Shown in pieces: positions 1 to 62,817 of a DNA stretch of 64,000 bases. A program made the position numbers and the translations under genes. The stretch spans positions 20,267 to 84,266 of the forward strand of contig JAEUIA010000097.1 in assembly GCA_016795245.1 (NCBI GenBank), written 5' to 3'. The notes under the pieces were generated by a model, which saw only the letters and a program-made list of their open reading frames with translations, was not told the origin of the DNA and did no database searches. The stretch comes from Planctomycetota bacterium. Its GTDB lineage: Bacteria; Planctomycetota; UBA1135; GCA-002686595. Position 1 is the stretch's first letter. Each line of letters opens with the position of its first letter.

Positions 1-1045
1 CGCTCTTCGGGTCGAGCGCATCGCGCAGCCCGTCGCCCAAGATATTCAGCGCGAGCAAGGTCGTGCCCATCGCCACCGCGGGCCACACGAGCAGCCACCA
101 ATCGATGCCCAGCGGGTGGATCGTGTCCGCGCCGTCGACCGCGAGCAGTCCCCACGACACGCGCGGCGCTTCGATGCCGAGTCCCAGGAAGGTCAGGAAC
201 GACTCGAACAGCATCACCGACGGAATCGACAAGGTCAGGTACACGATGATGATGCCGAACACGTTGGGCACGATGTGCACGAACAAGATGCGCGCGGTCG
301 AAGCACCCATCTGCCGCGCCGCGTCGACGAACTCGGCGTGGCGCAGGCTCAGCACCTGGCCGCGCACGACGCGCGCCATCGTCAGCCAGTACACGGCGCC
401 GATCGACAGGTAGAACACGGCTTCACGGTTCAAACCCAGTCGCGTTTCCAACAGGTCCTTCCAGCCCTGCAGGATCGTGATCAAGAAGATCACGATGAAG
501 ATGAACGGCAGTGAGTAGAGCACATCGACGATCCGCATCATCACGCGATCGGTGCGACCGCCGACGAAGCCCGCGAAGGCGCCCCACGTGACGCCGATCA
601 CGAGGCTCGTGAGCATCGCGAGCAGCGCGACCGCGATCGACGTGCGGCTGCCCCACACGATGCGACTCAGGAGGTCGCGGCCTTTGGAATCCGTGCCCAG
701 CCAGGGGCCCGTCTGCCAATCGCCGAAGAGCGCCACGCGCGCATCGACGAGGCGCTCGTCCACGCTCGAGAGCGGCCAGTACTCGCGCTGAAAACCGTGG
801 TTTCCAATGCTCGTCCACGGACCCGCGGGGGGAGTGGGTTCGGCGGAAAGTTCGAGTGCGGCAGGCGAGGGCAGCGGCAACAGCGGAGCGAGGAGGCTCG
901 TCAGACCCACCAGCGCGAGGAACATCAACGACCACCACGCGACGCGATTGCGGCGGAGCCTGCGCCAGGCTTCGGCACCCAAAGCGGCGCCGCGCTCGGG
1001 CGTGACCGCGGGTGCATCGAGCTTCCAACGCAGCAGCGCGCCCAT
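1..1045 (-). CDS. Oligopeptide/dipeptide ABC transporter permease, OppC/DppC type (C-terminus runs off the left edge)
   Basis: Own reverse-strand translation; this frame is absent from the ORF track because its stop lies outside the window. It reads MGALLRWKLD...WLGTDSKGRDLLSRIVWGSR...ITILQGWKDL...LLALNILGDGLRDALDPKS. The ATG at 1045 shares 1 nt with the TGA of the upstream permease (TGATG). Confidence 0.85.
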   Translation of the reverse strand, partial: MGALLRWKLDAPAVTPERGAALGAEAWRRLRRNRVAWWSLMFLALVGLTSLLAPLLPLPSPAALELSAEPTPPAGPWTSIGNHGFQREYWPLSSVDERLVDARVALFGDWQTGPWLGTDSKGRDLLSRIVWGSRTSIAVALLAMLTSLVIGVTWGAFAGFVGGRTDRVMMRIVDVLYSLPFIFIVIFLITILQGWKDLLETRLGLNREAVFYLSIGAVYWLTMARVVRGQVLSLRHAEFVDAARQMGASTARILFVHIVPNVFGIIIVYLTLSIPSVMLFESFLTFLGLGIEAPRVSWGLLAVDGADTIHPLGIDWWLLVWPAVAMGTTLLALNILGDGLRDALDPKS

Positions 1046-14979: not shown

Positions 14980-15395
14980 GTGCCCTCTTCCCACTCGATG
15001 TCTGCCTGATTCCTGCCTCTGAAGTCAAGCAAGCCATCGGTGGATGGGTGGCTGGTTCCTGAGACCGAACGTGGGATTTCAGCGAAGTTGCAATTCTCCA
15101 CATGGCCGGACCCGGCGCACGGGGGGAGGGCAGAATTTTCTACCGCGGGGGATACTGGCGCCCCTCGCTGGTCGCCCAGCCTGCTACCCCAAGGGCGCGC
15201 TCCCGGGCAGGGTCGGCGAATCCTGAGAGGGCCTCCAGACGCTGCCAAGGGGGGCGCTTCGAAGAGGACCAGCGGAGGGAGCCAGGATCACCTGGAGGAG
15301 GTCTGGGCGCCTGGGAGTGCCCGGGATGAAAGCAGCCGGCGGAGACCTGCGCGTCCGCGCAAGTCTCCGCCGGCCGGAGTCGGACCGTCCGCGCC

Positions 15396-18026
15396 TCAGC
15401 GCGCTTCGATCTTCTTCAATTCGTCGCGCACATCGGTGATGCGGGCGCGGATCAGGATCATCAGCGACTTGTTCTCGTCGCTGTAGCCCTCTTGCTTGAA
15501 GAAGAACCCGATGATCGGGATCTTCGCGATCCACGGGACTTCCGCGCGACGCTCGATGTTGCGGATGCTCGACAAGCCGCCGAGCATGATCGAGCCGCCG
15601 TCGGGGATGACCGCCGACGTGAAGACCGACTGCACTTGCAGCTCGGGGAGCTGGAACTGGATCGGCGACGTGTTGCCGCCGAGCGTCGAGCTGAAGTCGC
15701 GCAGCGCCACGACCTTGGCCACCGTCGGCTGGATCTCCAGCGTCAGGTACTTGCGGTTGTGGTGGATCGTCGGGCGCACGTCGAGCACGACGCCTTCGTT
15801 CAGGACGTTGATCTGCGGATCGGCGACGGCCTGGAACTGGGCGACTTCGACGTCGAAGTCCTGGATGTACGCGCGCTGGTTGATGACCGTGACGTACGCG
15901 CGCTGCGTGTTGTGCACGGACAGGACCTGGTCGTTGACGAGCTCGATGTTCGAGCTCTTCTCGACCGCGCGCAGGATCGCGCTCAGGTTGAGCTGATCGA
16001 GGAAGCCGAGCTGGAACGTAGCGCCGCCGATGGTGGAGAGCGCATTACCCAGGTTCGAGCCGAAGAAGTTCTGCGTCGTGGCACGGAAATCACCGTCCTG
16101 GCCGTCGTCGTAGAAGATACCGGCCGAAGGGTGACCGGCCGAGTTCTGGCCGGCCGTGCCCGTGCCGCCGTTGTCGAGGCCGCGTGAGGCCTGGTCTTCG
16201 AGGCCGTTCGTGACATCCGTGACGTCGATGTTGTCGAGGCCGCGGAAGTCGACGCCGATCTCCTGGATCCAGTTGGAAGCGACCGACAGGAACTTGGACT
16301 CGATCGTGACCAGCGACGAAGAGAAGCGGCGCAGGTCGTTCAGGAACTCGCGCACTTGGAGCTGCACTTCAGGCGTGTGGTTGATCAGGATGAAGCCCTC
16401 GGCGGCTTCGATCGAGACGCCCGCGTCCTGCCACGTGCCGACGGCGACGTTTTCCTGGATCAAGGTCGACAGGTCGGAGGGCTCGATGATCTTCGGCTTC
16501 TCGCCGATGCCGCCGAACGGGCCGCCGCCGTCGTCGTCCTGCATCTGATCGATGAGGCGCAGACGGTCGATGCGCGGACCCATGAAGTCGGTCAGGCCGA
16601 ACACGAGGTCCTGGACGTCGTGGTTGTAGATGATCGGCTTGTCGCGCGCCTTTTCCTTGGTCGTGATCAAGACCGCGTCGTGACGCACGGTCCAGGTGAC
16701 CTGGTCACCGGCCATCTTCGTGATCAGGTTCAAGACCTGTTCGGCGGTGAGACGGTTGTCGAAGTTGAAGTTGAAGACCGTCGCGTTGCTCTTGGCCGCG
16801 GCGTCGGCGGCCGGATCGACCACCAGCGGCAGGCCGGACTGGACGCGCAGGCCGTCGATCACGCGGATCAGGCTCTCTTCGTCCTTGGCGGCGACGTTCT
16901 GCACCGGCGTGTTGCGCAGGAGATCGCGCAGCGCGCGCTCCGACTCGCTGACCTTCTGCGAGAGGTCGATGCCGCGACGGCGCGAACGCAGGTCGGTGAT
17001 CTCGCTCCAGCGCTCGGCCGAGGGGAGCGTCAACTCCGGCGTCCAGGGGATCTCGAGTTCCTTCATCGACTCGCGCCAGCGGCGGTACTGCTCGTTCTTC
17101 TTCTCGACGTAGCTCGCCTTGACGGCCTTGCGACCGGCGCGGAACGACGCTTCGCGGATGTCCTTCGCCTGTTCGTTGCGCGGATCCTTGTCGAGTGCTT
17201 GCTGCGCGAAGTCCTCGGCGTCTTCGTACTCGCCGGCCTGGAACGCGCCGATCGCGCGGTCGAGGATGCCGTTCACTTGCGCGGTCTTGCGGTCGCGCAG
17301 CGTGGCTTCTTTCTCGCGCAGGGCTTCCGTGGCCTTGCGGCGCGCGGCCTCTTCGCTGGCCTTCTCGGCGCTCAAGCGCTGATCCTTGACGGTCTGGAGC
17401 ATCGACTTGGCTTCCGTGTCGAGGCCCTGCCAGTTGACCGAGTAGGGGGCGAAGCGCACCAGATTGTTCGCGATCTCCAGTTCGGTGATCGCGCCCTGGT
17501 AATCGTTGCGCGCGACGAGCACACGCGACTTCGCCAGCGCGTCTTGCACATCGGCCTTCATCTGCTGGACCTTCAGCGCGTACTGCTGCTCCATGTCCTG
17601 CGTGATGGTGCGCGCAGTGCCCGGGTCACCCCCGCGCATGCGGATCGATTCGGCGCGCAGGTCCTTGGCGCGCAGGTTCATGGGCTCGAGATCGAGCGCC
17701 GCAGCGGCTTCCAGTTCGGCCTCGGCGAACATCAAGTTCTTGAGGTAGGTCTCGGCGTTCTGGATGTGCTGCTGGATCAAGAAGGCCTTGCGCTGTTCAG
17801 CCAGCGAGAGCTTCTCGACATCCTGAGCGAGTTGCGAGCCGGGGCGGACGGTCCCGCCCGCGTCTTGCGGAGTGGCTTCGGCCGTGAGCGCGGCAGCAGA
17901 GGCCTTGGCCTCGGCGCTGTCCGCGCTCGCTTCGATCGCGTCGCCGTTCGAGCGGCAGGCCGCGAGGGCCAGGACGAGGACGAGGGGCAGGGCGTTCCCT
18001 GACGTCACGTAGCGGTGGTTCGACAT
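15396..18026 (-). CDS. Secretin-family outer-membrane lipoprotein (GspD/PilQ superfamily) with a TPR-like N-terminal region
   Basis: 876 aa, lipobox LALAAC. The C-terminal secretin signature is GGSIMLGGLSSIRNIERRAEVPWIAKIPIIGFFFKQEGYSDENKSLMILIRARI. The N-terminal ~300 aa are helical and TPR-like. Confidence 0.8.
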   Translation of the reverse strand: MSNHRYVTSGNALPLVLVLALAACRSNGDAIEASADSAEAKASAAALTAEATPQDAGGTVRPGSQLAQDVEKLSLAEQRKAFLIQQHIQNAETYLKNLMFAEAELEAAAALDLEPMNLRAKDLRAESIRMRGGDPGTARTITQDMEQQYALKVQQMKADVQDALAKSRVLVARNDYQGAITELEIANNLVRFAPYSVNWQGLDTEAKSMLQTVKDQRLSAEKASEEAARRKATEALREKEATLRDRKTAQVNGILDRAIGAFQAGEYEDAEDFAQQALDKDPRNEQAKDIREASFRAGRKAVKASYVEKKNEQYRRWRESMKELEIPWTPELTLPSAERWSEITDLRSRRRGIDLSQKVSESERALRDLLRNTPVQNVAAKDEESLIRVIDGLRVQSGLPLVVDPAADAAAKSNATVFNFNFDNRLTAEQVLNLITKMAGDQVTWTVRHDAVLITTKEKARDKPIIYNHDVQDLVFGLTDFMGPRIDRLRLIDQMQDDDGGGPFGGIGEKPKIIEPSDLSTLIQENVAVGTWQDAGVSIEAAEGFILINHTPEVQLQVREFLNDLRRFSSSLVTIESKFLSVASNWIQEIGVDFRGLDNIDVTDVTNGLEDQASRGLDNGGTGTAGQNSAGHPSAGIFYDDGQDGDFRATTQNFFGSNLGNALSTIGGATFQLGFLDQLNLSAILRAVEKSSNIELVNDQVLSVHNTQRAYVTVINQRAYIQDFDVEVAQFQAVADPQINVLNEGVVLDVRPTIHHNRKYLTLEIQPTVAKVVALRDFSSTLGGNTSPIQFQLPELQVQSVFTSAVIPDGGSIMLGGLSSIRNIERRAEVPWIAKIPIIGFFFKQEGYSDENKSLMILIRARITDVRDELKKIEAR

Positions 18027-29472: not shown

Positions 29473-30765
29473 CTATCCCGTGATCGGCCGCGCCGATGCC
29501 TGGGAATCTTCGTGCGGGAAGAACGGCAGCGTCGCCAGCCCGACGACACCCAGCGTGCACACCACCCAGAAGAAGCGGCCGAAGCCCAGCCACTCCACCA
29601 TGTCGCCGCTGTAACGACCCGCGAGCCAGGCCGACAAGGCCATGATCCCTGTCGAGATCGCGTAGTGCGTGGTCGAGAAGCGCGTGCCGCGCGAGAGGGC
29701 GAGGAGCGCCGCCATGTAGGCCGAGAATCCCAGCCCGTAGCCGAATTGCTCGACGCCGATGACCGCGGTGATCGCGGAGCGTTCGAAGTGCGCGGTCGCG
29801 GCCCAGGCGTACAGGAGGTTCGGGACGTGCAGCGCGAGTGCGCAGGGGAGCAGAGCGCGCTTCAACCCGACGCGCGCGATCCACATGCCGCCCAGGATGC
29901 CGCCCGCGACGAGCGCGACCACGCCCACCGTGCCGTAGATGAAGGCGACGTCGAGTTCGTTCAAGCCCACGCCGTCCTTCGCGCGCTCCGTGAGCAGGAA
30001 GGGCGCCAGCATCGGCGTGAGCAGCGATTCGCCCAGCCTGAACAGCAGGATGAACGCGATGCCTCCGACGATGCCGGGGCGTGCGAAATACGCCTGCAAC
30101 GACTCGACGAAGTCGTTCCACCCGATCCCCGAGCGGCGCGTCGGCGCGTCGTTCGACGGACGCGGCAGAGCGGCGAAATGCCAGACGGTCGAGAGTGCGT
30201 AGACGAGAGCGCACGCACCGAAGGCGAGGCTCCACGCGTGCGCGGTGTTGCCATCGTCGCCCGCTTTCAACCAACCGGCGATGCCGATCGCGCCGCCCAT
30301 CACGGCGATGCGCCCGATGCGGAAAGCCGCGCTGCGCGCGCCGACGAAGAACTCCTGGTCGTGCTTCGTGAGCGCCAGGATGTAGAAACCGTCGGTCGCG
30401 ATGTCGTTCGAGGCGCCGGCGACCGCGATCATGAGACACGCGAGCGCGACGTGCGTGACCGGATCGGGGCCTTGGATCGCCCAAGCCAGCGCTGCGATCG
30501 CGAGGCTGGTCGCGACGGCCGAGAGGATCAGCCAACCGCGCTTCGTCCCGAACAGATCGATCAGCGGACTCCACAGCGGCTTGAGCATCCACGGGAGCGT
30601 GAGATCGCTCGCGTAACGGCCGATGTCGGCGACGGGCACGCCCAGGATCTTGAAGTAGGTCGTCGTCGCTGCCTGCACGACGAAGTAGGCGAGACCCTGG
30701 TTCGTGTACAGCGTCGGCACGAAACTCCACGGGGACTTCGTCGGCGGACTTTCGTGGGCGCTCAT
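29473..30765 (-). CDS. MFS transporter of the AmpG / PAT (peptide-acetyl-CoA transporter) type
   Basis: 430 aa, multi-TM. The N-terminal region VPTLYTNQGLAYFVV...LPWMLKPLWSPLIDLFGTKRGWLILS resembles AmpG-family permeases. It is first gene of the MFS-MBOAT-AlgX-like string. Confidence 0.6.
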   Translation of the reverse strand: MSAHESPPTKSPWSFVPTLYTNQGLAYFVVQAATTTYFKILGVPVADIGRYASDLTLPWMLKPLWSPLIDLFGTKRGWLILSAVATSLAIAALAWAIQGPDPVTHVALACLMIAVAGASNDIATDGFYILALTKHDQEFFVGARSAAFRIGRIAVMGGAIGIAGWLKAGDDGNTAHAWSLAFGACALVYALSTVWHFAALPRPSNDAPTRRSGIGWNDFVESLQAYFARPGIVGGIAFILLFRLGESLLTPMLAPFLLTERAKDGVGLNELDVAFIYGTVGVVALVAGGILGGMWIARVGLKRALLPCALALHVPNLLYAWAATAHFERSAITAVIGVEQFGYGLGFSAYMAALLALSRGTRFSTTHYAISTGIMALSAWLAGRYSGDMVEWLGFGRFFWVVCTLGVVGLATLPFFPHEDSQASARPITG

Positions 30766-30872
30766 CGGGCGGCGGAACGATACCTGCTGCGGAGCGTGTT
30801 GCAGTGAGTGTGAATCGGAAAGTGGACGGGATGAACCACGCTGGTGCGGTTGATCTCAGCGATCTCACGCGA

Positions 30873-30994
30873 GGTCTGACCGTACCGAGCCAGGCTCGTG
30901 TGGTGCATCTTCACCGGCGTAGACCCGCGCGCCGGCGCGCGGGTCTATGCCGGTGAAGATGCACCACACGAGCCTGGCTCGGTACGGTCAGACC
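30873..30994. repeat. 122-bp near-perfect palindrome (copy A of a two-copy element family)
   Basis: The arms 30873-30933 and 30934-30994 are reverse complements at 60 of 61 positions (one G:T). The 112-bp core 30878-30989 recurs at 61178-61289. It lies in the divergent intergenic region between the MFS gene and der. Confidence 0.9.
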
Positions 30995-31159
30995 GACCAC
31001 CAGCGCGCGCATCGCCGACCACGTTTCCGCCAGGGGATGAGGAGCGCTGGGGGCGCATTCGATGTCGGAGTGCCGAGAGACCCACCGCAGAGAGGCGCAA
31101 GCGGTGTTCTTTGCCGCGCGCGCGTCCGCCCTGTACCGTGTTCGGCCCTTTCCCCGCCG

Positions 31160-32527
31160 ATGAAGCCCTCAGCCACCCTACGTCTGCCGCGTGTCGCCAT
31201 CGTCGGGCGGCCCAATGTAGGCAAGTCCACGCTCGCGAACCGCATGTGCGGATCGCGCGTCGCCATCGTCGAGCCCACCGCCGGCGTGACGCGCGATCGC
31301 ATCGCCATCGTCACACGCCTCGACACGGAGCAGGGCTCGCGCTGGTTCGAAGTCGTGGACACGGGCGGTATCGGCATCGTCGATCGCGACGATCTCGGCC
31401 CGCTCGTCGAACAACAGATCCAGGCCGCCATCTCGAGCGCGCGCGTCATCCTGTGGGTGGTCGACGTGCGCGACGGCATCACGGCCCTCGATCTGGAGGT
31501 CGCGCGCCGCCTGCGCGGCCAGAAAATCCCCGTGATCCTGGTGGCCAACAAGGCCGAAGGCGCGCGCTTCCAGTGGGATGTCAGCGAATTCCACAAGCTC
31601 GGTTTCCACGACGGTCCGTACGCGATCAGCGCGCAGAACGGCGAAGGTCTGGACCCCTTGTACGAGCGCATCGTCGAGCTGATCCCCGACGCCCCCGAGA
31701 GCGAAGAAGCTCCGGTCGAAGCGCCGGTGATGAAACTCGCCGTCGTGGGCCAGCGCAACGCGGGCAAGTCGACCCTGATCAACGCCTTCGCCGAAGAAGA
31801 GCGCATGATCGTGTCCGAAGTCCCGGGCACGACGCGCGATTCGGTCGACGTCGTGTTCGACCGCGGCGACAAGACCTTCGTCGCGATCGACACCGCCGGC
31901 ATCCGCAAGAAAAAGAGCCACGAAGACGCGATCGATTTCTACTCCGACGCGCGTTCGCACAAAGCGATCCGGCGCGCGGACGTCGTCATCCTGCTCTTCG
32001 ACGTCACCAAGAAGCTCTCCGGGATCGACAAGCAACTCGCGCGCTACGTCGTCGACCACCACAAGCCCGTAATCCTGGGCGCGAACAAATGGGATCTCGT
32101 GAAGGACCTCACGCCCGAGGATTTCCGCGCCTACATCGACGACAACCTGCCGGCGTTGGAGTTCGCGCCGATCAGTTTCCTCTCCGCCAAGGAGAAAAAA
32201 GGCGTCGACGGCACGCTCAGGCTCGCATCGGACCTGTTCGAGCAGTCCAAGACGCGTGTCTCGACGGCCGAATTGAACCGCGTACTGACGAAAGCGCTCG
32301 AATCGCGCAGCCCGAGCGCCGGAGGCCACGCCGTGCGCGTGCGCTACGCGACGCAGGCCGAGACCTCACCGCCGACCTTCGTCTTGTTCGTGAACGACAA
32401 GAAGCATTTCAACAAGGACTATATCCGCTACCTCCAGAATCGCCTGCGCGAAGATCTGCCGTTCAAGGAGATCCCGGTGCGCATCGTGCTGCGCGACAAG
32501 GACAGCCGCGAAGAGGAATCATCATGA
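31160..32527 (+). CDS. der: Ribosome-associated GTPase Der/EngA (two GTPase domains)
   Basis: The ATG at 31160 gives MKPSATLRLPRVAIVGRPNVGKSTLANRM, and the second G domain is KLAVVGQRNAGKSTLINAF. A KH-like C-terminus is present. The track ORF start at 30947 lies inside the palindrome. Confidence 0.9.
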   Translation: MKPSATLRLPRVAIVGRPNVGKSTLANRMCGSRVAIVEPTAGVTRDRIAIVTRLDTEQGSRWFEVVDTGGIGIVDRDDLGPLVEQQIQAAISSARVILWVVDVRDGITALDLEVARRLRGQKIPVILVANKAEGARFQWDVSEFHKLGFHDGPYAISAQNGEGLDPLYERIVELIPDAPESEEAPVEAPVMKLAVVGQRNAGKSTLINAFAEEERMIVSEVPGTTRDSVDVVFDRGDKTFVAIDTAGIRKKKSHEDAIDFYSDARSHKAIRRADVVILLFDVTKKLSGIDKQLARYVVDHHKPVILGANKWDLVKDLTPEDFRAYIDDNLPALEFAPISFLSAKEKKGVDGTLRLASDLFEQSKTRVSTAELNRVLTKALESRSPSAGGHAVRVRYATQAETSPPTFVLFVNDKKHFNKDYIRYLQNRLREDLPFKEIPVRIVLRDKDSREEESS

Positions 32528-40742: not shown

Positions 40743-41663
40743 TCAGGGACCCCACTGAACCATGACACCGTTCGTGGTGTTGAAGTTCTGAAGAATCGCC
40801 GTGCAGAACGCCGGGAACGTGCGGTACCAGCCCTGGTAGTAGTACGAGCCGGGCGTGACTCCGCCGCTGACGCTGATCGGGAGATCACCCGGCTCGGGCA
40901 GGCCGGCCTGACCGTTGCACGTGGCCTTGATCGCGAGACGCGTGATCGTGCCCGTGACGCACAAAAGTCCGTTGCCGAATTGGATGCCGGCACCGCCCGC
41001 CATCGGAGCCGTGCCTTGGAAGAACAACACGAACGTGCTCGCCGGCAGCCGCAGCGCGTGCAACACGAACCTGTCGTTGGAGATGCTCAGCGGCAGTCCG
41101 GGGATGCCATAGCCCACCAGGCGCCCGCCGATTCCCGGCGCGTGCAAGCAACCCTCGTTGTCACCCGCAGCACTGTTGTTCACGCACGGGCAAGCCGTGC
41201 CACTGCCGTCGCCGTAGCAGAACGTGGGTTGATTGGGGAACGTGTCGATCTGTCCGCGGATCTCTCCGCCGGGAAAGGCTGTCGAGTGGACGTTGAAGTA
41301 GCTGTTCCCCGCGAGCACCGCCGCTTGCTGCGCCAACGGGACCGCCCAGGCGCCGCACTTCAGCGCACCCAAAGCTTGCGCGTGCTGCACGCCGGAGTTC
41401 ACGCCCGGACCGGAGAACCCGTGGATGTGCGCGGCCGTCTCGCCTGCGCTCAAGTTCTGGTAGACCTCGCGGTACGTGAGCGTGCTCGTAGCGAGGTCGA
41501 ACGCGCAGAATCCGAGGCCGGTCGCCGGCGAGAGGTTCGCCGGCACCTCCTGCAGACCGTCGAGGCGCGCGAGCATGGGGATCGTTTGCGCCGAGACGAC
41601 GGGCGCGAACGGCGCTGCACAGAGCAGCAGGGCGAGAAGGGGACGCACGGATGCATGGAGCAT
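40743..41663 (-). CDS. Secreted CHRD-domain protein with a Cys-rich C-terminal module (paralogue 1)
   Basis: The ATG at 41663 gives the signal peptide MLHASVRPLLALLLCAAPFAPVVSAQ. CHRD hallmarks are LQEVP, AAHIHGFSGPGVNSGV and YFNVHSTAFPGGEIRGQI. The C-terminal module runs FCYGDGSGTACPCVNNSAAGDNEGC...YYQGWYRTFPAFC...NTTNGVMVQWGP. Confidence 0.85.
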   Translation of the reverse strand: MLHASVRPLLALLLCAAPFAPVVSAQTIPMLARLDGLQEVPANLSPATGLGFCAFDLATSTLTYREVYQNLSAGETAAHIHGFSGPGVNSGVQHAQALGALKCGAWAVPLAQQAAVLAGNSYFNVHSTAFPGGEIRGQIDTFPNQPTFCYGDGSGTACPCVNNSAAGDNEGCLHAPGIGGRLVGYGIPGLPLSISNDRFVLHALRLPASTFVLFFQGTAPMAGGAGIQFGNGLLCVTGTITRLAIKATCNGQAGLPEPGDLPISVSGGVTPGSYYYQGWYRTFPAFCTAILQNFNTTNGVMVQWGP

Positions 41664-41883
41664 GGGAGAAACTCGCGAGAGCAGGTGGCAGAGAGCGCGA
41701 CGAAATGTCGACTCACAGTGCGACTCGCGCGTGCATGGTAGATCTGCGCACGAAAAGCGGGGAGTGGGGCGGTTGGAATGCGGCGAGGCCGGCATACGTC
41801 ATGGGGACGTGGGCCGACCTCGCGGGGCGGGGGGGGGCGAAGGGCTGGGGGTCCCCGTGCGTCAGGGTTGTGGGGTGTTCCCC

Positions 41884-41981
41884 TCTACTACTGGATCCGG
41901 CAAATTTGCCGGATCTCTACTACTGGATCCGGCAAATTTGCCGGATCGTGGATCCGACAAATTGCCGGATTGGATTGCCGG
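41884..41981. repeat. Two perfect 32-bp tandem units plus a degenerate third, each containing a 22-bp palindrome
   Basis: 41884-41915 and 41916-41947 are identical: tctactactggatccggcaaatttgccggatc. The palindrome is GATCCGGCAAATTTGCCGGATC. The degenerate unit is gtggatccgacaaattgccggat, followed by tggattgccgg. The block ends 2 nt before the stop codon of CHRD paralogue 2. Confidence 0.9.
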
Positions 41982-41982
41982 G

Positions 41983-42909
41983 TCAGGGCACCCAGGTCAC
42001 AGCCACACCGTTGGTGAGATTGTCGAACGCCACCGCACCCGAGCAGAACGGCGGATTCACGCGGAACCAGGCCTGGTAGTAGTACGTGCCCGGCGCAACT
42101 GCGCCCGCGAAGCTGATCGTGGCATCGCCCGGTTCGGGCAGTCCGGCTTGGCCATTGCACGTCGCCTTGACGTTCAAGCGCGAGAGCGCACCGCTCACGC
42201 ACAAGAGTCCTCCGCCGAACGGAATTCCGTTGCCTCCGGCCATCGGCGCTGTGCCCTGGAAGAACAGGACGAAGGTGCTCGCCGGCAAGCGCAACGCGTG
42301 CAACACGAGATTGTCGTTGGCGATGCTCGGATTCGGCGCCGACGGCGGACCCGCGTAGCCGACCAGGCGACCGCCCATTCCCGGAGCATGGAGGCAACCC
42401 TCCATATCGCCGACTGCGCTGAAATTCGCGCACGGGCACGCGGCTGCGCTGCCGTCGCCGTAGCAGAAAGTCACTTGATCCGGCGCGAGGTTGATCTGTC
42501 CGCGGATCTCACCGCCGGGGAACGCGGTGCTGTGAACGTTGAAGTACGAGTTGCCCGGCAAAACCTGCAACGTTTGCGCGGCCGTCATGCCCCACACGCC
42601 GCACTTGAGCGTGCCCAAGGCCTGGGCGTGCAAAACGCCTGCGTTGAAACCCGGCGTCGCGAATCCGTGGATGTGCGCCGCGGTCTCGGCTGAACTCAGG
42701 TTCTGGTAGACCTCGCGATACGTGAGCGTGTTCGCGGCGACATCGATCGCGACGAAACCGAGGCCCGTCGCGGGCGTTGTGGTCGACGGAACTTCCTGCG
42801 CGCCATTCAAGCGCGCGAGCCGCGGAACCGTCTGCGCAGACGTGGTCTGCGTGAGCGACGCGGCACAGACGAGGAGCGTGAGAACGGAACGGACGGATGC
42901 ATGGACCAT
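41983..42909 (-). CDS. Secreted CHRD-domain protein with a Cys-rich C-terminal module (paralogue 2)
   Basis: The ATG at 42909 gives MVHASVRSVLTLLVCAASLTQTTSAQ. Motifs are AAHIHGFATPGFNAGV, YFNVHSTAFPGGEIRGQI and FCYGDGSAAACPCANFSAVGDMEGC...YYQAWFRVNPPFC...NLTNGVAVTWVP. Confidence 0.85.
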   Translation of the reverse strand: MVHASVRSVLTLLVCAASLTQTTSAQTVPRLARLNGAQEVPSTTTPATGLGFVAIDVAANTLTYREVYQNLSSAETAAHIHGFATPGFNAGVLHAQALGTLKCGVWGMTAAQTLQVLPGNSYFNVHSTAFPGGEIRGQINLAPDQVTFCYGDGSAAACPCANFSAVGDMEGCLHAPGMGGRLVGYAGPPSAPNPSIANDNLVLHALRLPASTFVLFFQGTAPMAGGNGIPFGGGLLCVSGALSRLNVKATCNGQAGLPEPGDATISFAGAVAPGTYYYQAWFRVNPPFCSGAVAFDNLTNGVAVTWVP

Positions 42910-43168
42910 GGGGGAAGGCCTCGCGGGCGCGGATTTCTGGAGTGCGACGATGTGTCGTCTCACAGCGCGACTACAGGCACATGGTAGTGCGAGGTGGTCT
43001 TCTTGGGGATGGAGGGTGGAAATGCAGCAAGGCCGACCGCGTCACGGGGAGGGACGGGCCGGCCTTGCGGGGGAGCGCCAGTTGGAGCAGCTGAGTCCGG
43101 AGGTCGTCCTTGCAAAGCTCGAGTCGGCCAGTCTGCCGCCTCGGCCTGGATCCCTCCACGCGGCCTGC

Positions 43169-44092
43169 TCAGGGCGCCCAGGTCACGCGCACCCCGTTGG
43201 TCAGGTTGTAGTTCGCGGGGACCGACGAGCAGAAGCCCGGAAAGGTGCGGAACCAGCCCTGGTACAGGAAAGTGCCCGGCGTCACCGCGCCGCTCACGCT
43301 GATCGGGAGATCGCCCGGCTCGGGGAGACCGGCCTGTCCGTTGCACGTCGCCTTGACGTTGAGGCGCGCGAGGTTGCCGGAGAGACACAAGAGGCCGTGG
43401 CCGAACTGCAGACCTGCACCTCCAGCCATCGGCACCGTGCCTTGGAAGAACAGCACGAACGTGTTCGACGGCAGACGCAGCGCGTGCAAGACGAGTCGGT
43501 CGTTGGAGATGCTCGGATTCGGCGCCGGACCGGCGTAGCCGACCAATCGACCTCCCACGCCAGGTGCGTGCAGGCAACCTTCGTTGTCACCGACCGCGCT
43601 GTTGTTGCCGCACGGGCAGGGCGTGCCGGTGCCGTCGCCGAAGCAGAACTCGGTTTGATCGGGTGCGAGGTCGATCTGTCCGCGGATCTCGCCGCCCGGG
43701 TTGCCTACTGTGTGGATGTTGAAGTAGGCCAGGCCGCCCATGACGTTGGCCAGTTGTACAGGCGTCAACGCCCACACACCGCACTTCGGTTGCCCGAGTG
43801 CTTGGGCGAGTTGGACTCCGGCGTTGACGCCGGCCGGGGCGAAGCCGTGGATGTGCGCCGCCGTCTCAGCCGAGCCCAAGGCCTGGAACACTTCGCGGTA
43901 CGCCATCGCACTCGCGAGCGTGTCGATCGCGACGAAGCCAAGCCCGTTTCCGAGCGTGACGACACCCGGGACTTCCTGCGCGCCGTCGAGTCGCGCGAGT
44001 CGCGGAAGCGTTGTCTGAGCCGGCGCGAACGTCGCGAGAGTCACGGCGCCGAGCAACGAATACAGCATGGAACGCAGCATGGAATGCATCAT
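43169..44092 (-). CDS. Secreted CHRD-domain protein with a Cys-rich C-terminal module (paralogue 3)
   Basis: The signal peptide is MMHSMLRSMLYSLLGAVTLATFAPAQ. Motifs are AAHIHGFAPAGVNAGV, YFNIHTVGNPGGEIRGQI and FCFGDGTGTPCPCGNNSAVGDNEGC...LYQGWFRTFPGFC...NLTNGVRVTWAP. Confidence 0.88.
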   Translation of the reverse strand: MMHSMLRSMLYSLLGAVTLATFAPAQTTLPRLARLDGAQEVPGVVTLGNGLGFVAIDTLASAMAYREVFQALGSAETAAHIHGFAPAGVNAGVQLAQALGQPKCGVWALTPVQLANVMGGLAYFNIHTVGNPGGEIRGQIDLAPDQTEFCFGDGTGTPCPCGNNSAVGDNEGCLHAPGVGGRLVGYAGPAPNPSISNDRLVLHALRLPSNTFVLFFQGTVPMAGGAGLQFGHGLLCLSGNLARLNVKATCNGQAGLPEPGDLPISVSGAVTPGTFLYQGWFRTFPGFCSSVPANYNLTNGVRVTWAP

Positions 44093-44339
44093 GGGAAATC
44101 TCCTCTTGCAGGGGCGCTCGCGGCAAACGCGCCGCGCTCCACCCCGCCAGCCGCTCGATGGTAGTCGAGACGCGGGCCGGCGGGGGCGAAGTTGCCAGGG
44201 GATTCAGCGACATCGCCCCCGGCGCGTGACGGGCAATCCCGCTTCCGGTCCGGATCTCGCACCACGTGTCGGTGAGGCGTCACCTGTACGAGCCTCGCCG
44301 CGTCCTCGCGTTCGACGTGCTCCCAGCGTCGCGTCGCCG

Positions 44340-45269
44340 TCAGGGCGCCCAGACGACGCGAATCGCGTTCGTGAGATTGAAGTTGCCCGGGATCGCGGCG
44401 CAGAAGCCCGGGTTCGTACGGAACCAGCCTTGGTAGAGGTAGGCCCCCGGCACGACACCGCCGCTGACGCTGATCGGGAGATCACCCGGCTCGGGCAGAC
44501 CGACCTGTCCATTGCAGGTGGCCTTGATGTTGAGGCGCGTGATGTTGCCCGTCAGACACAAGAGTCCGCTGCCGAATTGAATTCCATTGCCGCCGTTCAT
44601 CGGCACCGTCCCTTGGAAGAACAGGACGAAGGTGCTGGCCGGCAGACGCAAGGCGTGCAACACGAAGTTGTCGTTCGAGATGCTCGGAGTCGGAGCCAGC
44701 GGCGGCCCGGCGTAGCCGACGAGTCGGCCGCCCATGCCCGGCGCGTGCAAGCAACCCTCGTTGTCACCCACCGCGCTGTTGTTGCCGCACGGGCACGGCG
44801 TACCGCTGCCGTCGCCGAAGCAGAACTCGCCCTGGTCAGGCCGCAGATCGATCTGTCCGCGGATCTCACCGCCGGGGTTCGTCGTCGTGTGGATGTTGAA
44901 GTACGCGAAGCCGCCGATCACGTTCGACTGCTGCACCGGTGTCATCGCCCACACGCCGCACTTCGGTTGCCCGAGCGCTTGGGCGTGCACCACTCCCGCG
45001 TTCACGCCGGCCGGCGCGAAACCGTGAATGTGGGCGGCCGTCTCGATACCCGTCAGGTTCTGGAAGAGCTCGCGGTAGGTGAGCGTATTGGTCAGCGTGT
45101 CGACCGCGACGAAGCCGAGGCCGCTCCCCGGAGTCAGGACGATCGGGACCTCTTGCGCACCACTGAGGCGCGCGAGCAACGGAACGGTGGTCTGGGCCGG
45201 CGCGGCGGTCGCGAGTGTCACGAGGCCGAGCAGCGCGAACAGGCCGGAACGCAGAGTGGGTTGAGTCAT
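44340..45269 (-). CDS. Secreted CHRD-domain protein with a Cys-rich C-terminal module (paralogue 4)
   Basis: The signal peptide is MTQPTLRSGLFALLGLVTLATAAPAQ. Motifs are AAHIHGFAPAGVNAGV, YFNIHTTTNPGGEIRGQI and FCFGDGSGTPCPCGNNSAVGDNEGC...LYQGWFRTNPGFC...NLTNAIRVVWAP. Confidence 0.88.
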   Translation of the reverse strand: MTQPTLRSGLFALLGLVTLATAAPAQTTVPLLARLSGAQEVPIVLTPGSGLGFVAVDTLTNTLTYRELFQNLTGIETAAHIHGFAPAGVNAGVVHAQALGQPKCGVWAMTPVQQSNVIGGFAYFNIHTTTNPGGEIRGQIDLRPDQGEFCFGDGSGTPCPCGNNSAVGDNEGCLHAPGMGGRLVGYAGPPLAPTPSISNDNFVLHALRLPASTFVLFFQGTVPMNGGNGIQFGSGLLCLTGNITRLNIKATCNGQVGLPEPGDLPISVSGGVVPGAYLYQGWFRTNPGFCAAIPGNFNLTNAIRVVWAP

Positions 45270-58449: not shown

Positions 58450-59954
58450 GTCCCGAAGTCACAACGCTGCAATCCGCAGGGATCGGTTCCGCGCGCACGC
58501 CGCGCACGCTCATTCCCGGTATCCCGAAGCGCGTCCATCTGCTCGGCGCGGGCGGCGCCGGCGTGTCCGGAGCAGGACTCATCCTGCACGCGCACGGGCA
58601 TACGGTGACGGGCCATGATCGCGCCGACTCGAATTTCGTCGCCAAGCTGAAGCAGGTGGGCATCCCCGTCACGCTCGGCGCCACGGACGCGGCAGAACTG
58701 CCGCGCGACGTCGAACTCGTCGCGCGCACGGCGGCCTTGGGCGCGGACGATCCGCAAGTCGCCGAAGCCGCGCGCCGCGGAGTTCCGGTGTGGAAATACG
58801 CGGAGTTGCTCGGACGCATCGGCCCGGAGCGGCGCACCATCGCCGTCGCCGGCACGCACGGCAAGACCACGACTTCGTGGATGACGTTTCACGCCTTGCG
58901 CGGAATCGCGGAGGCGGCGGGAGGCACGAGCCATGCTCCGGGCGCCTTGATCGGCGGCACGTGTCGCGTGGTCGAGGCCAACGCCGTCGCGCCCGAAGCC
59001 GACGGCTGGTTCGCCTGCGAAGCCTGCGAGTTCGATCGTTCGTTCCTGCAACTCTCGCCCGAAGGCGCGATCGTCACGAACATCGAACCCGATCACCTCG
59101 ACTACTACGGCAGCCTCGCTGCGATCGAAGAGGCGTTCGCGCGCTTCGTCGACCGCATCCACCCCGACGGTTTGCTCGTCGTGGGTCGCGATGTGCCCGC
59201 TGCGGTCGTATCGGCCGCGCCGTGCGACGTGTGGCGACTCGGGCGTGAACTGCACATCGATCTCCTCGGCGAGAGCCACGGTCATTTCCGCTTCCGTCTG
59301 CGCGGTCCGGGTTTCGCGACGCCGCCGGTGACCTTGAGCGTCCCGGGCGCGTTCAACGTCGAGAACGCGGCGCTCGCGCTGGGCCTCGCGATCGGACTGG
59401 CCGCGCCCGCGCAAGGCGTGGGGCCGGATGCGGCGGCCGCCGCCGCAGCGCGCACCGTGCACCGCTACAAGGGCGCGCTGCGCCGCTTCGAGCCGTGGGG
59501 CACGGTCGGAGGCGTCGAACTCATCCACGACTACGCGCACCATCCGACCGAAGTCCGGGTGACGCTCGAAGCCGCGCGCCGCACGCTGCCGGGCAAACCG
59601 ATCCACGTGTTGTTCCAGCCGCACCAGCACAGTCGCACCGCGCGCTTCCTCGAAGACTTCGTCGAATCCCTGCGCGGCGCGGATCGCGTCGTGGTGGCCG
59701 ACGTGTACGGCGCGCGTGCGCACATCGACTCGAAGAGCGCGGGCGCGCCCGAGCTCGTGACGCTGCTCAGTCGAGCGGGCGTCGATGCCGTCCTGGGCGG
59801 CGAGCCCAAGACCGCGATCCTGAAACTTTGCGAGCGTCTCCCCGCCGGTGGGGCGGCGCTCATCCTCGGCGCCGGCGACATCGACAATTCCAAAAATGAC
59901 CTCATTGAAGAGCTGGCCTTGCGCGGCCCTGCCGCACGCGGATCTCTCCGCTAG
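58446..59954 (+). CDS. murC: UDP-N-acetylmuramate--L-alanine ligase
   Basis: The GTG at 58446 overlaps the murG TGA (GTGA). Motifs are VHLLGAGGAGVSGAGLILHAHGHTVTGHD and VAGTHGKTTTSWM. Confidence 0.9.
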   Translation: MSPEVTTLQSAGIGSARTPRTLIPGIPKRVHLLGAGGAGVSGAGLILHAHGHTVTGHDRADSNFVAKLKQVGIPVTLGATDAAELPRDVELVARTAALGADDPQVAEAARRGVPVWKYAELLGRIGPERRTIAVAGTHGKTTTSWMTFHALRGIAEAAGGTSHAPGALIGGTCRVVEANAVAPEADGWFACEACEFDRSFLQLSPEGAIVTNIEPDHLDYYGSLAAIEEAFARFVDRIHPDGLLVVGRDVPAAVVSAAPCDVWRLGRELHIDLLGESHGHFRFRLRGPGFATPPVTLSVPGAFNVENAALALGLAIGLAAPAQGVGPDAAAAAAARTVHRYKGALRRFEPWGTVGGVELIHDYAHHPTEVRVTLEAARRTLPGKPIHVLFQPHQHSRTARFLEDFVESLRGADRVVVADVYGARAHIDSKSAGAPELVTLLSRAGVDAVLGGEPKTAILKLCERLPAGGAALILGAGDIDNSKNDLIEELALRGPAARGSLR

Positions 59955-60873
59955 AACCACGATGCGTGTCGGCGGCGCAGCGGAATGGCTGCTCGAGCCG
60001 GCGACGCCCGACGAATTGCGCCGTGCCGTCGTGGCCGCGCGCGAGGAGGGCTTCGTGCCGCGCATCCTCGGCGGCGGCGCGAATCTGCTCGTCGACGACG
60101 GAGTGCTGCCCGGGGTCGTGATCACGACCGACCGAATCAAGCGTCTGTTCAGACCCGAGATCGACGGCCCGAACAGCGTGCGCGATGCGATCGAGATGGC
60201 GCCGCGCATGGCGCCCGCGCCGCGCGAAGAAGGCCTGCGCTTCGTCGCCTGGAGCGGCGTGTCGATGCCCAAGCTCGTCAACGCTGCCGCCGAACTCGGA
60301 TGGAGCGGAGTCGAAGGACTCGCCGGCGTGCCCGGCAACGTCGGCGGGGGCGTCGCGATGAACGCGGGCGGGCGCTGGGGCGAGATGTGGGGCGTCGTCG
60401 AACGCGTGCTCGTCGTCGACGAGCAGGGCGAGTTCCAGGAACTCGATCGTCAATCCTGCTCGCCGCGCTACCGCAACGGAGGACTGGGCGCGAAGATCGT
60501 CGTCTCGGCCCTCCTGCACTTCGATCTCGACGATCCGAAGTCGGTCAAGGAGCGCGGGCGCGATTTCCTGTTGGAGAAAAACCGCGTCCAACCCGTGACG
60601 GCCTGGTCGGCCGGTTGCATCTTCAAGAACCCGGACAAGCTGGCGAGCGGCGGACGCTCGGCAGGCAAGCTGGTCGAGGAGTGCGGGCTGAAGGGGCGCG
60701 TCGTCGGCGACGCGATCGTCTCACCGCTGCACGGCAACTTCATCGTCAATCGCGGTCGTGCCACGGCGCGCGATGTGTTCGAGTTGATTCGCATCATCCG
60801 TGCCGAAGTCGCCGACAAGACCGGCATCGCGCTCGAACTGGAAGCCAAGGAGTGGCGCGCGGAGAAGGGGTAG
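59896..60873 (+). CDS. murB: UDP-N-acetylenolpyruvoylglucosamine reductase
   Basis: The ATG at 59896 gives MTSLKSWPCAALPHADLSARTTMRVGGAAEWLLEP. Later motifs are LGGGANLLV and GCIFKNP. It overlaps the murC 3' end by 59 bp. Confidence 0.85.
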   Translation: MTSLKSWPCAALPHADLSARTTMRVGGAAEWLLEPATPDELRRAVVAAREEGFVPRILGGGANLLVDDGVLPGVVITTDRIKRLFRPEIDGPNSVRDAIEMAPRMAPAPREEGLRFVAWSGVSMPKLVNAAAELGWSGVEGLAGVPGNVGGGVAMNAGGRWGEMWGVVERVLVVDEQGEFQELDRQSCSPRYRNGGLGAKIVVSALLHFDLDDPKSVKERGRDFLLEKNRVQPVTAWSAGCIFKNPDKLASGGRSAGKLVEECGLKGRVVGDAIVSPLHGNFIVNRGRATARDVFELIRIIRAEVADKTGIALELEAKEWRAEKG

Positions 60874-61158
60874 GGGGCGGGCCGGATCCGCTGAGTGAAT
60901 GATCGCGATGCCGAGCCGGGCCATGGTTCAGGGATGCGGCGGAGTCGAGGCGGACTCCCTTTCACACTGACGCGCATCGCGCAGCAACGCTTCGCGAGCG
61001 ACATCGAGCTGCAAAGCATCGATACCGACACCGAACTCCGCCCCTGAACGCTTCGCGAGCGGCGCCGAACCTGAGCCCCTCAACGCGTCCAGTCCGACAC
61101 CGAACACACCCAACCAGACCCCACCCCATTGTTGACCTCGGGGTTCGCGATTTGCGCA

Positions 61159-61308
61159 GTGGCGCTCGTCCGAGTTTGACCGTACCGAGCCAGGCTCGTG
61201 TGGTGCATCTTCGCCGGCGTAAAGCCGCGCGCCGGCGCGCGGCTTTACTCCGGCGAAGATGCACCACACGAGCCTGGCTCGGTACGGTCAAACTCGGACG
61301 AGCGCCAC
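61159..61308. repeat. 150-bp near-perfect palindrome (copy B of the element at 30873-30994)
   Basis: The arms 61159-61233 and 61234-61308 are reverse complements at 74 of 75 positions. The core 61178-61289 matches 30878-30989 except at 8 positions. It lies in the convergent intergenic region between murB and the MacB-type permease. Confidence 0.9.
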
Positions 61309-61407
61309 CGCGCGAACCGCGAACGCCGAGACCCGCTGCGAAGCACGCGTCGAATGCTGTTGCTTCCCAGTTTGCCGGGATCTCCTCATCTGCCTCGCGG
61401 GCTGCGG

Positions 61408-61519
61408 TGTTGAATACGGTGCCAGAGCAATTTCATCACACTTCGCGAGGTGCGTCATGACTGTTGGTCAACGGCAGCTTGCGAAGTGTGATGAAATTGC
61501 TCTGGCACCGTATTCAACA
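61408..61519. repeat. 112-bp hairpin/inverted-repeat element: 39-bp perfect arms with a 34-nt loop
   Basis: The left arm tgttgaatacggtgccagagcaatttcatcacacttcgc (61408-61446) is the exact reverse complement of 61481-61519. The arms are visibly less GC-rich than the surrounding sequence. The element ends 27 bp from the stop of the MacB-type permease gene. Confidence 0.9.
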
Positions 61520-61545
61520 GATCGGAGCCTGATTGCGTACGCGAA

Positions 61546-62817
61546 CTACTCGTGGCGCAGGGCTTCGACCGGATCCATGTTCGCCGCTCTCCACGCCGGG
61601 TAGAGACCGAACACGATTCCGATCAAGGCCGAGATGCCGAACGCGAGCAGCGGGTCGGTGGCCTTGATGATCGCCGGCAGGTCGTAGTTCTTCTCGACGT
61701 ACAGCGGGATCAACAATCCCAGACCCACTCCCAAGATGCCCCCGCCGACCGAGAGGATGACGCACTCGACCAGGAACTGTGTCGTGATGTGGCGCTTCTT
61801 GGCGCCGAGTGCTCTCCGAATGCCGATCTCGCGCGTGCGCTCCGTCACCGTCGCGAGCATCACGTTCATGATGCCGATGCCGCCGACGAGCAACGAGATG
61901 CCCGCGATCGCGCCGAGCACGATCGTCCAGGTGCGCGCCGTCTCTTCCGCCTGACGCATGAGTTCCAGCGGTACGACGACCTCGTAGTCCTTCTGCTTGT
62001 GCTGGCTCGCGAGCATGTGCCGCGCGGCCGAAGCGACGAGCAGCACGTTGTCTGGGCTCTCGACCTCGACGATGACCTCGTGCAACTGGACTTCTTCCAT
62101 GTCGCGCGAGCCGCTGCGGATCTTGACCTGGACGTCGCCAAACCACTTGCGCCCCGTCTCCAGCGGCAGGAACAGCTCGCCGGTCACGTCTGCACCGGGC
62201 TGCGGTTGATCGCTGCCGAGCGGCACGCGCGGCAGCAGGACGCCGACGCAGGTGAAGTAGTCGGGACCGATCTTGATCTCCTGCCCGACCGTGGATTCGA
62301 ACGGCGATAGGAAGCGCGCCACTTCGTAACCGAGCACGCACACGTTGCTCACGCGGCGCTCGTCTTCGTCGGACAGGAAGCGGCCTTCGGACAGCGGCCT
62401 GCCTGTGACTTGAATGTACTGCGGCACCGTCGCCAGGACGCGCGGATTGAGTGCGCGCATGCCCAGGCGCACTTCCTGCTGTAGTTGGCGCACAGGAATC
62501 GCGCGCTTCACACCCGGAAACGTCGTCGACGCACGCAGAAAGTCGGAGTCGGTCAAGCCGTAACTCGAAATGCGTGTCGTTTCGCGTCCCGACACGACAT
62601 CGTCCGGCGGCTTGACGCTGCGCATGATCACGTTCTGGCTGCCGAGCTGACGGATCTGATCCTGCGCCTTCTTCGCGGCGCCCTCGCCGATCGCGAGCAT
62701 CGCGATGACGGACGAAACGCCGAACGTGACGCCCAAGGTCGTGAGCACACTGCGCAATTTGTGCAACAGCAGGCTGTGCACGCCCAGGCGCACCGTGCGA
62801 CCGAAAGTGCCCTTCAC
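61546..62817 (-). CDS. ABC transporter permease, MacB/FtsX type
   Basis: 423 aa with a GTG start. (M)KGTFGRTVRLGVHSLLLHKLRSVLTTLGVTFGVSSVIAMLAIGEGA is followed by a large periplasmic domain and then the C-terminal FtsX-type TMs, ending GLYPAWRAANMDPVEALRHE. Confidence 0.88.
   Translation of the reverse strand: MKGTFGRTVRLGVHSLLLHKLRSVLTTLGVTFGVSSVIAMLAIGEGAAKKAQDQIRQLGSQNVIMRSVKPPDDVVSGRETTRISSYGLTDSDFLRASTTFPGVKRAIPVRQLQQEVRLGMRALNPRVLATVPQYIQVTGRPLSEGRFLSDEDERRVSNVCVLGYEVARFLSPFESTVGQEIKIGPDYFTCVGVLLPRVPLGSDQPQPGADVTGELFLPLETGRKWFGDVQVKIRSGSRDMEEVQLHEVIVEVESPDNVLLVASAARHMLASQHKQKDYEVVVPLELMRQAEETARTWTIVLGAIAGISLLVGGIGIMNVMLATVTERTREIGIRRALGAKKRHITTQFLVECVILSVGGGILGVGLGLLIPLYVEKNYDLPAIIKATDPLLAFGISALIGIVFGLYPAWRAANMDPVEALRHE

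Follow-up and report, generated by a model that had tools for sequence, protein, structure and literature searches.

The long palindromes described here, which lie between genes in an uncultured lineage of Planctomycetota, are probably lineage-restricted, non-autonomous and non-coding repeats that form hairpins and belong to the mobile type represented by REPINs, or REP doublets. The window, that is the whole stretch of 64,000 nucleotides that we analysed, has a G+C content of 66.9%, and our copy count for the source genome refers to these 64 kb: two elements of a first family (family 1, copies A and B) and one of a sister family (family 2). With one further member of each family in other organisms, the total is five elements, each at a locus unrelated to the others, in three organisms, and all five carry the same mirrored box. 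The sequence between and outside the boxes varies from copy to copy and stays paired.

We propose that the boxes would be recognised by an enzyme provided in trans, for which a single-strand-specific HUH/Y1 transposase of the RAYT or IS200/IS605 kind is the most plausible candidate, and that the element would move, or would formerly have moved, as a folded single strand. That a RAYT in particular is the mobiliser is possible, but doubtful. This is not a new kind of system: the compensatory pattern is known from REPINs, and the one unusual feature is the outward palindromy.

Five elements with a mirrored box

Copies A and B share a 112-bp core (30878-30989 and 61178-61289) with eight differences between them. 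Six of these form three pairs compensated across the dyad (core positions 36/77, A:T to G:C; 45/68, G:C to A:T; 47/66, C:G to G:C), and the other two are single changes at positions 71 and 72. Eight random substitutions would include at least three exactly compensated pairs with a probability of about 1.2e-5. The first-pass annotation of this DNA had reported this core with its compensated pairs, within near-perfect palindromes of 122 and 150 bp that each hold one non-Watson-Crick pair, a mini-palindrome CGAGCC-A-GGCTCG and the centre CCGCGCGCCGGCGCGCGG, and with flanks that are unrelated between the copies, each pair being complementary. Our dyad maps and our own derivation of the differences agree with this description, save that copy B is in fact 194 bp long. 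Its inner 150 bp (61159-61308) are perfect apart from a single C:T at 61218/61249, and the palindromy then continues to 61137-61330 with four extra mismatches. The outer stem of this copy (61137-61176 / 61291-61330), which surrounds the core and is specific to it, consists of 18 perfect pairs adjoining the box, followed by 22 positions with the four mismatches.

Table 1. Positions of the palindromic elements, their boxes and the adjacent genes. Positions are those of the window unless a locus is named; flank pairing is the number of paired bases counted outward from TGA...TCA.
Feature	Position	Strand	Flank pairing	Description
Copy A, family 1	30873..30994	.	4	122-bp palindrome, 61-nt arms, single G:T at 30919/30948
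Copy A, left box TGACCGTACCGAGCCAG	30877..30893	+		overlaps the mini-palindrome CGAGCC-A-GGCTCG at 30886-30898
Copy A, right box	30974..30990	-		mirrors the left box
Copy B, family 1	61137..61330	.	18 (40 with 4 mismatches)	194-bp full palindrome, 97-nt arms, 5 mismatches in total
Copy B, left box TGACCGTACCGAGCCAG	61177..61193	+		
Copy B, right box	61274..61290	-		
Copy C, family 1	L081 (Ga0124853_1170698) 172-276		1	105 bp, 21-nt ends the same as in A and B
Family-2 element	61408..61519	.	3	112 bp, 46-nt arms (2 mismatches), 20-nt loop; boxes TGAATACGGTGCCAG at 61411-61425 and 61502-61516
Family-2 relative	L083:10685-10816		18	perfect 132-bp palindrome, homologous to 61408-61519
AmpG-like MFS transporter gene	29473..30765	-		left neighbour, identified by frame analysis and cross-genome conservation; 108 nt separate its start codon and the copy A palindrome
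der/engA GTPase gene	31160..32527	+		right of copy A
murB	59848..60873	+		last dcw-cluster gene, converges on copy B; 59848 is the longest-ORF start, the gene caller chose 59962
MacB/FtsX-type ABC permease gene	61546..62817	-		converges on the family-2 element and copy B

The 56-nt arms of copies A and B are 93% identical at sites 30 kb apart, and four occurrences of the 35-nt arm end were counted where 0.00 would be expected. As DNA hairpins, the two copies have energies of -86.7 (A) and -108.7 kcal/mol (B), with z-scores of -21 and -24, and over the elements as a whole the hairpin is the minimum-energy fold with z = -15 to -24. A branched, T- or cruciform-like fold had also been put forward, and it is disfavoured for the single strand: the minimum-energy structure of A and of B is one long hairpin, and the 28-nt arm end that contains the mini-palindrome folds weakly when taken alone (-5.2 kcal/mol, z = -1.7). 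An assembly artefact was rejected, as both copies are internal to the contig with coherent genes on either side, and related elements are found in the independent contigs L081 and L083.

What had been described as a two-copy element has a third copy and a sister family. A gapped pattern fixing only both ends (GACCGTACCGAGCC ... GGCTCGGTACGGTC) retrieved a single metagenome contig, L081, which is unrelated to the window contig. Its G+C content of 73% and its many frameshifts indicate a different organism and an assembly of lower quality. In its long minus-strand gene, the reading frame switches repeatedly, a sign of many indel errors in the contig. The copy that it carries (copy C) lies exactly between two convergent genes, so placed that the TGAs of its boxes are both stop codons, one of which is confirmed by a paralogue ending at the identical residue; two tandem paralogues on this contig end in ...GP(R/Q)(V/I)EIF(R/Q)L*. 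About 25 nt are left unpaired at the centre of this copy. The family-2 element of the window is found 77 nt from copy B, and its relative comes from a locus, L083, whose permease is 94% identical to that of the window; the two have in common the sequence TACGG(A/T)GCCAGAGCAAT(A)TTTC.

When the five elements are aligned, each is seen to contain the box TGA-(0-5 nt)-RTACSGNGCCAG, which spans about 17-20 nt, twice and in inverted orientation. The elements measure 105-132 bp, and the spacing from box to box ranges from 61 to 80 nt. At the place of the mini-palindrome, both members of family 2 have GAGCCAGAGCA, which is not self-complementary, so the mini-palindrome is not a conserved feature.

Searches elsewhere returned little. 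The exact arm 21-mer CCGAGCCAGGCTCGTGTGGTG had no match in 185,579 species genomes or in the JGI metagenomes, which do not include the source MAG. Neither a 19-mer nor the gapped end pattern matched any viral contig, and copy B had no BLASTN match among the PLSDB plasmids. The box pattern gave 11 matches in viral contigs, all of them single, unpaired and outside any palindrome; ten belong to one conserved phage sequence, and we regard them as chance or unrelated matches. These ten contigs (L096-L105, from IMG/VR) share a 31-mer, GGTACTGAGTGTACGGAGCCAGAGCAGCCAC, two of them with one substitution, and the family-2 box is contained in it; it stands single and non-palindromic in phage DNA of about 53% G+C, and is probably a coincidence inside a conserved gene. 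BLAST and a family-1 covariance model run over about 1.06 Mb (the window and related Planctomycetota loci) recovered only A, B and C, and a palindrome scan of the eleven loci L084-L094, from a relative with a permease 77-78% identical, found none. A chimeric query made of all translated element frames matched nothing in the protein database at E <= 10, and the ORFs that cross the elements had zero Pfam matches, so that a coding role for them was rejected.

Genomic surroundings

The homologues of Der place the window in an uncultured Planctomycetota lineage, the best matches (88, 85 and 83% amino-acid identity) all being MAGs. As had been noted in the first reading of the sequence, copy A is located in a divergent region, around which the ampG-like gene (-), encoding protein MBL8859438.1, and der/engA (+) diverge, and copy B in a convergent one, where murB (+) faces the MacB/FtsX permease gene (-). 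All five elements are extragenic, and four of the five lie just downstream of gene 3' ends. Upstream of der and downstream of the copy A palindrome, a -10-like motif, GTAYCSTGTTCGSCCC, is found at 31133-31149 and is conserved in at least five relatives. It occurs in L002, L005 and L006 (50-60 nt before der), as well as in L001 and L003, and it holds a TAnnnT -10-like hexamer; it is probably the der promoter. From its position upstream of this motif, copy A may lie between two promoters and may not be transcribed.

In the nearest relatives, the orthologous spacer between ampG and der measures 150-190 nt and does not contain the element. Taken with the scarcity of covariance-model matches, these element-free spacers are consistent with a lineage-specific insertion. 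Neither an empty site nor an excision product was seen; in L001 and L002 this spacer is shorter and has diverged too far for a base-level alignment. On the other side of the window, the spacer that holds copy B and the family-2 element (60874-61545) coincides exactly with a break of synteny with respect to L082:7730-7750, L083:2244-2264 and L084:6952-6996. In these relatives, a convergent nrfA or ChlI/ComM-type gene is reached within 20-45 nt of the permease stop codon; the permease gene of the window faces 672 nt with palindromes, and then the dcw cluster with murB. The repeats may be markers or mediators of a rearrangement, and their presence at a breakpoint adjoining the dcw cluster hints at such a role.

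Other repeats and hairpins were seen in the same DNA and in related loci. An 18-bp G+C-rich hairpin with no T-run (15333-15376) is located about 20 nt past the stop of an 876-aa gene (15396-18026), and may be an example of the terminators of this genome. At 40743-45269, four paralogues, each of about 300 aa and with a CHRD domain, follow one another in tandem at a spacing of about 1.2 kb (repeat families D1, D2 and D4), and between two of them (41883-41946) a 32-nt unit, which includes the 20-nt palindrome ATCCGGCAAATTTGCCGGAT, is present as an exact tandem duplicate. An ORF of 714 aa (11082-13226) is made of three internal repeats of about 670 nt that are 69-80% identical (families D3, D5, D8 and D9). 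In the der loci of Gemmataceae (L025-L044), other long hairpin repeats recur between genomes (for instance L030:3530-3604, L034:4523-4599, L028:4985-5084 and L044:3658-3763), with arms starting with AGGCGAACCCSGCCCGCAAGGG and GCCACGGATGAAC among the examples, so there seem to be several unrelated families of palindromic repeats in Planctomycetota.

Maintenance of the pairing and competing explanations

Copies A, B and C were aligned together with 10 bases of flank at either end, and the pairing was assessed on this alignment, which comprises 59 pairs. As it holds three sequences, and the structure was derived from them, its figures are a description and not a proof of selection: 95.9% of the cells are paired, 18 of the 59 pairs are changed in both members and not one in a single member, none of 500 shuffles reached any of five pairing measures, and the pairing falls to 30-37% when the partner columns are slid by 1-3. 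The 21-nt ends are identical in the three copies, and the interior is variable but paired. In copy C, seven of the nine stem positions that follow the ends differ from A and B, each being matched on the opposite arm, which gives seven further double changes inside the element and zero one-sided changes. Alignment columns 32-40 contain seven double changes, of which six are transversion pairs, and the whole table contains two G:U cells only. As transversion pairs cannot pass via G:U, and as G:U is nearly absent, a stepwise compensation in RNA is unlikely. The first-pass annotation had attributed the preserved pairing to selection on a DNA or RNA hairpin, or to the copying of one arm from the other. 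The pairing is indeed maintained, and copy C strengthens this alternative between hairpin selection and arm-to-arm copying; as to the level at which it operates, a DNA-level cause is more likely than an RNA-level one, and the case for an RNA role of the palindromes is weak.

We consider it unlikely that the palindromes are functional RNA hairpins selected at the level of the transcript, be it as terminators without a U-tract, as stabilisers of mRNA 3' ends, as RNase III sites or as small RNAs. Such a role would suit the four copies at gene 3' ends and a genome that seems to place GC-rich hairpins without T-runs after its genes, such as the one at 15333-15376; moreover, REP hairpins are known to stabilise upstream mRNA (summarised in PMC3733652). 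However, copy A, between divergent genes and upstream of the -10-like motif of der, may be untranscribed, the dyad symmetry makes both strands fold equally, which selection on a transcript does not need, and stems of 46-97 bp go far beyond what termination or stabilisation needs. The predominance of transversion pairs and the two G:U cells also speak against it. No sigma-70 promoter or terminator consensus was found, 30700-31250 and 60800-61600 hold no terminator-like site, and no T-run follows either palindrome, so that an intrinsic (Rho-independent) terminator, which would need a U-run, was rejected for both regions. A scan of the whole window with Rfam gave zero matches at the gathering threshold; the only models to score, well under it, were generic microRNA-precursor hairpins, and a tRNA or tmRNA identity was rejected as well. 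Less probable still is that we are dealing with immobile, symmetric protein-binding sites (paired operators, or nucleoid, gyrase or IHF-type sites comparable to the BIMEs of E. coli) kept by the host for the organisation of its chromosome. Inverted boxes would suit a dimeric binder, and REP/BIME elements are known to bind gyrase, Pol I and IHF, but the box spacing varies, the orthologous spacers of relatives lack the elements, and the paired variable stems are left unexplained. Compensatory change in a hairpin is usually taken as the mark of a selected RNA structure; here the pattern could hardly be stronger, with zero one-sided changes in 59 pairs, yet the context suggests a DNA-level mobile repeat, and the case is a caution for covariation-based RNA discovery in GC-rich genomes.

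A mobile origin of another sort would be that of a conventional MITE, a deletion derivative of a DDE insertion sequence whose transposase would bind the box as a terminal inverted repeat, with an interior of irrelevant filler. The size of the elements, their inverted conserved ends, their intergenic position and their restriction to a lineage all agree with this, yet we hold it to be improbable. No direct repeat or target-site duplication is present at any of the five element junctions, where each flank repeats the other in inverted and not in direct orientation; this argues against a DDE-type MITE and would fit the single-strand chemistry of HUH enzymes. Besides, the box is subterminal in copy B and in the L083 relative, with at least 18 paired copy-specific bases outside it, and a filler has no need of perfect pairing, yet none of the 59 pairs has a one-sided change. 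The window ORFs that were scanned include no DDE transposase. Pfam scans, which covered the ORFs surrounding the elements and those window ORFs whose function was not evident, revealed neither a Y1_Tnp/RAYT nor any other transposase domain, the remaining window genes being judged from their translations only. There is similarly little probability that the palindromes never transposed as such and were generated in place, by a fold-back (template-switch) inverted duplication of a unique segment bearing the box. This would account for a palindromy that crosses the box into copy-specific outside DNA (18, 18, 4, 3 and 1 bp), and for the unrelated sequences inside, since an inverted duplication of the box with its neighbouring DNA would yield that very pattern, and the perfecting of quasipalindromes by template switching is established (PMC7202029). 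Against it, the near-identical arms of copies A and B indicate that at least this 56-nt unit spread whole, the box must still reach five unrelated loci in three organisms, and the centres can be asymmetric, with the 20-nt loop of the family-2 element and the unpaired centre of copy C.

For the REPIN-like mobile repeat that we favour, the symmetry of the arms would be held at the level of DNA, in either of two ways. Only hairpin-competent copies might be propagated, or else, where the folded intermediate or the replication fork presents a mismatch, one arm might be copied onto the other by template switching of the quasipalindrome type, a process that would create seemingly compensatory differences without any selection on RNA.

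The pairing outside the boxes (Table 1) raises a related point. If a match is taken to have a chance of about 0.28 per base, Fisher's combination of the short values (4, 3 and 1) gives p of about 0.002, a soft figure since the TGA boundary was picked after viewing the elements, of which there are only five overall. Moving the boundary to GACC gives copy C five paired bases in its flanks, which amounts to a mirrored duplication of 3 nt (GAC), a small indel to be taken with caution given the indel errors of its contig. In the reading that we favour, the copy-specific outer stems would come either from insertion at the apex of terminator-like hairpins already in place, or from self-templating that runs on beyond the boundary of the element, in which a nascent strand would fold back on the palindrome and copy its own flank. 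We further suggest, tentatively and as something possible though rather unlikely, that the elements are palindromes without a fixed end, which either integrate specifically at the apex of any DNA hairpin, recognising structure and not sequence and so nesting in terminator stems, or grow outward by self-templated synthesis. Apex insertion finds support in L084, where the gene end orthologous to the L083 site has a 10-bp hairpin overlapping the stop codon, and in the terminator-like hairpin of the window (15333-15376), and it has a precedent in the REPs of T. roseum (PMC3733652). In the promoter region around copy A a terminator hairpin would not be expected, yet 4-5 flank bases are paired there, which mildly favours self-templated extension. 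If the latter were true, the compensatory differences, the mirrored 3-nt indel of copy C and the outer stems would all reflect one arm-copying process and not selection. If outward palindromy proved to be general, it would offer a test of hairpin-apex targeting against template-switch enlargement, also for REPs embedded in palindromes.

Relation to known palindromic repeats

The first-pass annotation had pointed to REP sequences and their RAYT transposases, and this suggestion leads to the nearest known kind, the REPIN, though no RAYT domain was found in the ORFs scanned. REPINs are doublets of REP sequences which form hairpins and are mobilised by RAYTs, in Pseudomonas fluorescens SBW25 and in other bacteria (Bertels & Rainey 2011, PMC3116915; PMC3337134), and it is already published that compensatory hairpin changes are common in their spacers (PMC3116915; PMC3337134). 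REPINs number tens to hundreds per genome, nearly all of them extragenic, with a cognate single-copy RAYT gene that has the same repeat on its flanks; the 64 kb of the window contain three elements. Like REPINs, the elements are extragenic, some 90-130 bp long, with inverted conserved end units and a less conserved spacer, and they form one long hairpin. Mirrored end units and a single long hairpin are found in all five of them, and conserved ends with a variable, compensated spacer in copies A, B and C. In family 1, each end unit holds a short palindrome, weakly folding when alone, that a central A/T makes imperfect (CGAGCC-A-GGCTCG, to be compared with GGGAGC-TT-GCTCCC in SBW25; PMC3337134). 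Unlike in REPINs, the tag beside the small hairpin is GTAC and not GTAG, the spacer is perfectly palindromic to its centre in three of the five elements, and the palindromy passes the conserved ends into copy-specific DNA. The sister family 2 has the box and no small REP-type hairpin, which limits the REP analogy to family 1.

REP sequences of the GTAG superfamily also form head-to-head dimers, with the tags outside and spacers of 20-100 bp (Di Nocera et al. 2013, PMC3733652). Some of these dimers lie inside longer palindromes, in Anabaena variabilis, Thermomicrobium roseum and Halothiobacillus neapolitanus, and REP families together with Y1 transposases have been reported in Planctomycetes, namely in Rhodopirellula baltica (PMC3733652). 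Our elements resemble them in their outward tags, in their location near the 3' ends of convergent genes, in termini that can give stop codons, and in that some are inside palindromes. However, the palindrome that encloses GTAG-REP dimers has a consensus, whereas the outer stems here are unrelated between copies, and the family-1 stem of 5-6 bp, with its loop of 1-3 nt, is at the short end of the published range. The published variants of the tag are GYAG, GYRG, GTRG, GTMG and GTGG, that is, changes at positions 2-3, or GTGG (PMC3733652); the tag here is GTAC in family 1 and in L083 and ATAC in the family-2 element of the window, and so lacks this feature of the superfamily. The CGTC-tagged superfamily has a terminal CGTC, a stem of 8-9 bp that starts with A/T pairs and a loop of 4-5 nt (Di Nocera 2013, PMC3733652); it was considered and rejected, the stem here being of 5-6 bp and all G/C-rich, the loop of 1-3 nt and the end GGTC.

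With PATEs derived from IS200/IS605 and with IS608-type ends, the elements have in common the lack of target duplication, the conserved subterminal motifs or hairpins and a presumed single-strand chemistry, and their boundary TGA recalls the tetra- and pentanucleotide cleavage and target sites of IS200/IS605-type elements. In contrast, the left and right ends of the latter are not mirror images, and they are not palindromes over their whole length; no TnpA or TnpB gene was found here among the ORFs scanned. Template switching that perfects quasipalindromes (Ripley model; work of the Lovett laboratory; PMC7202029) would likewise turn a single mutation into a "compensated" pair by copying from arm to arm, and can extend a palindrome into its flank, but it is a mutational process and not a family of elements, which leaves the spread of the box across loci and genomes unexplained. 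The closest likeness is thus to REPINs, and the elements described here extend REPIN-like repeats to an uncultured lineage of Planctomycetota, with a GTAC tag and with a sister family in which the small REP hairpin either was lost or was never present.
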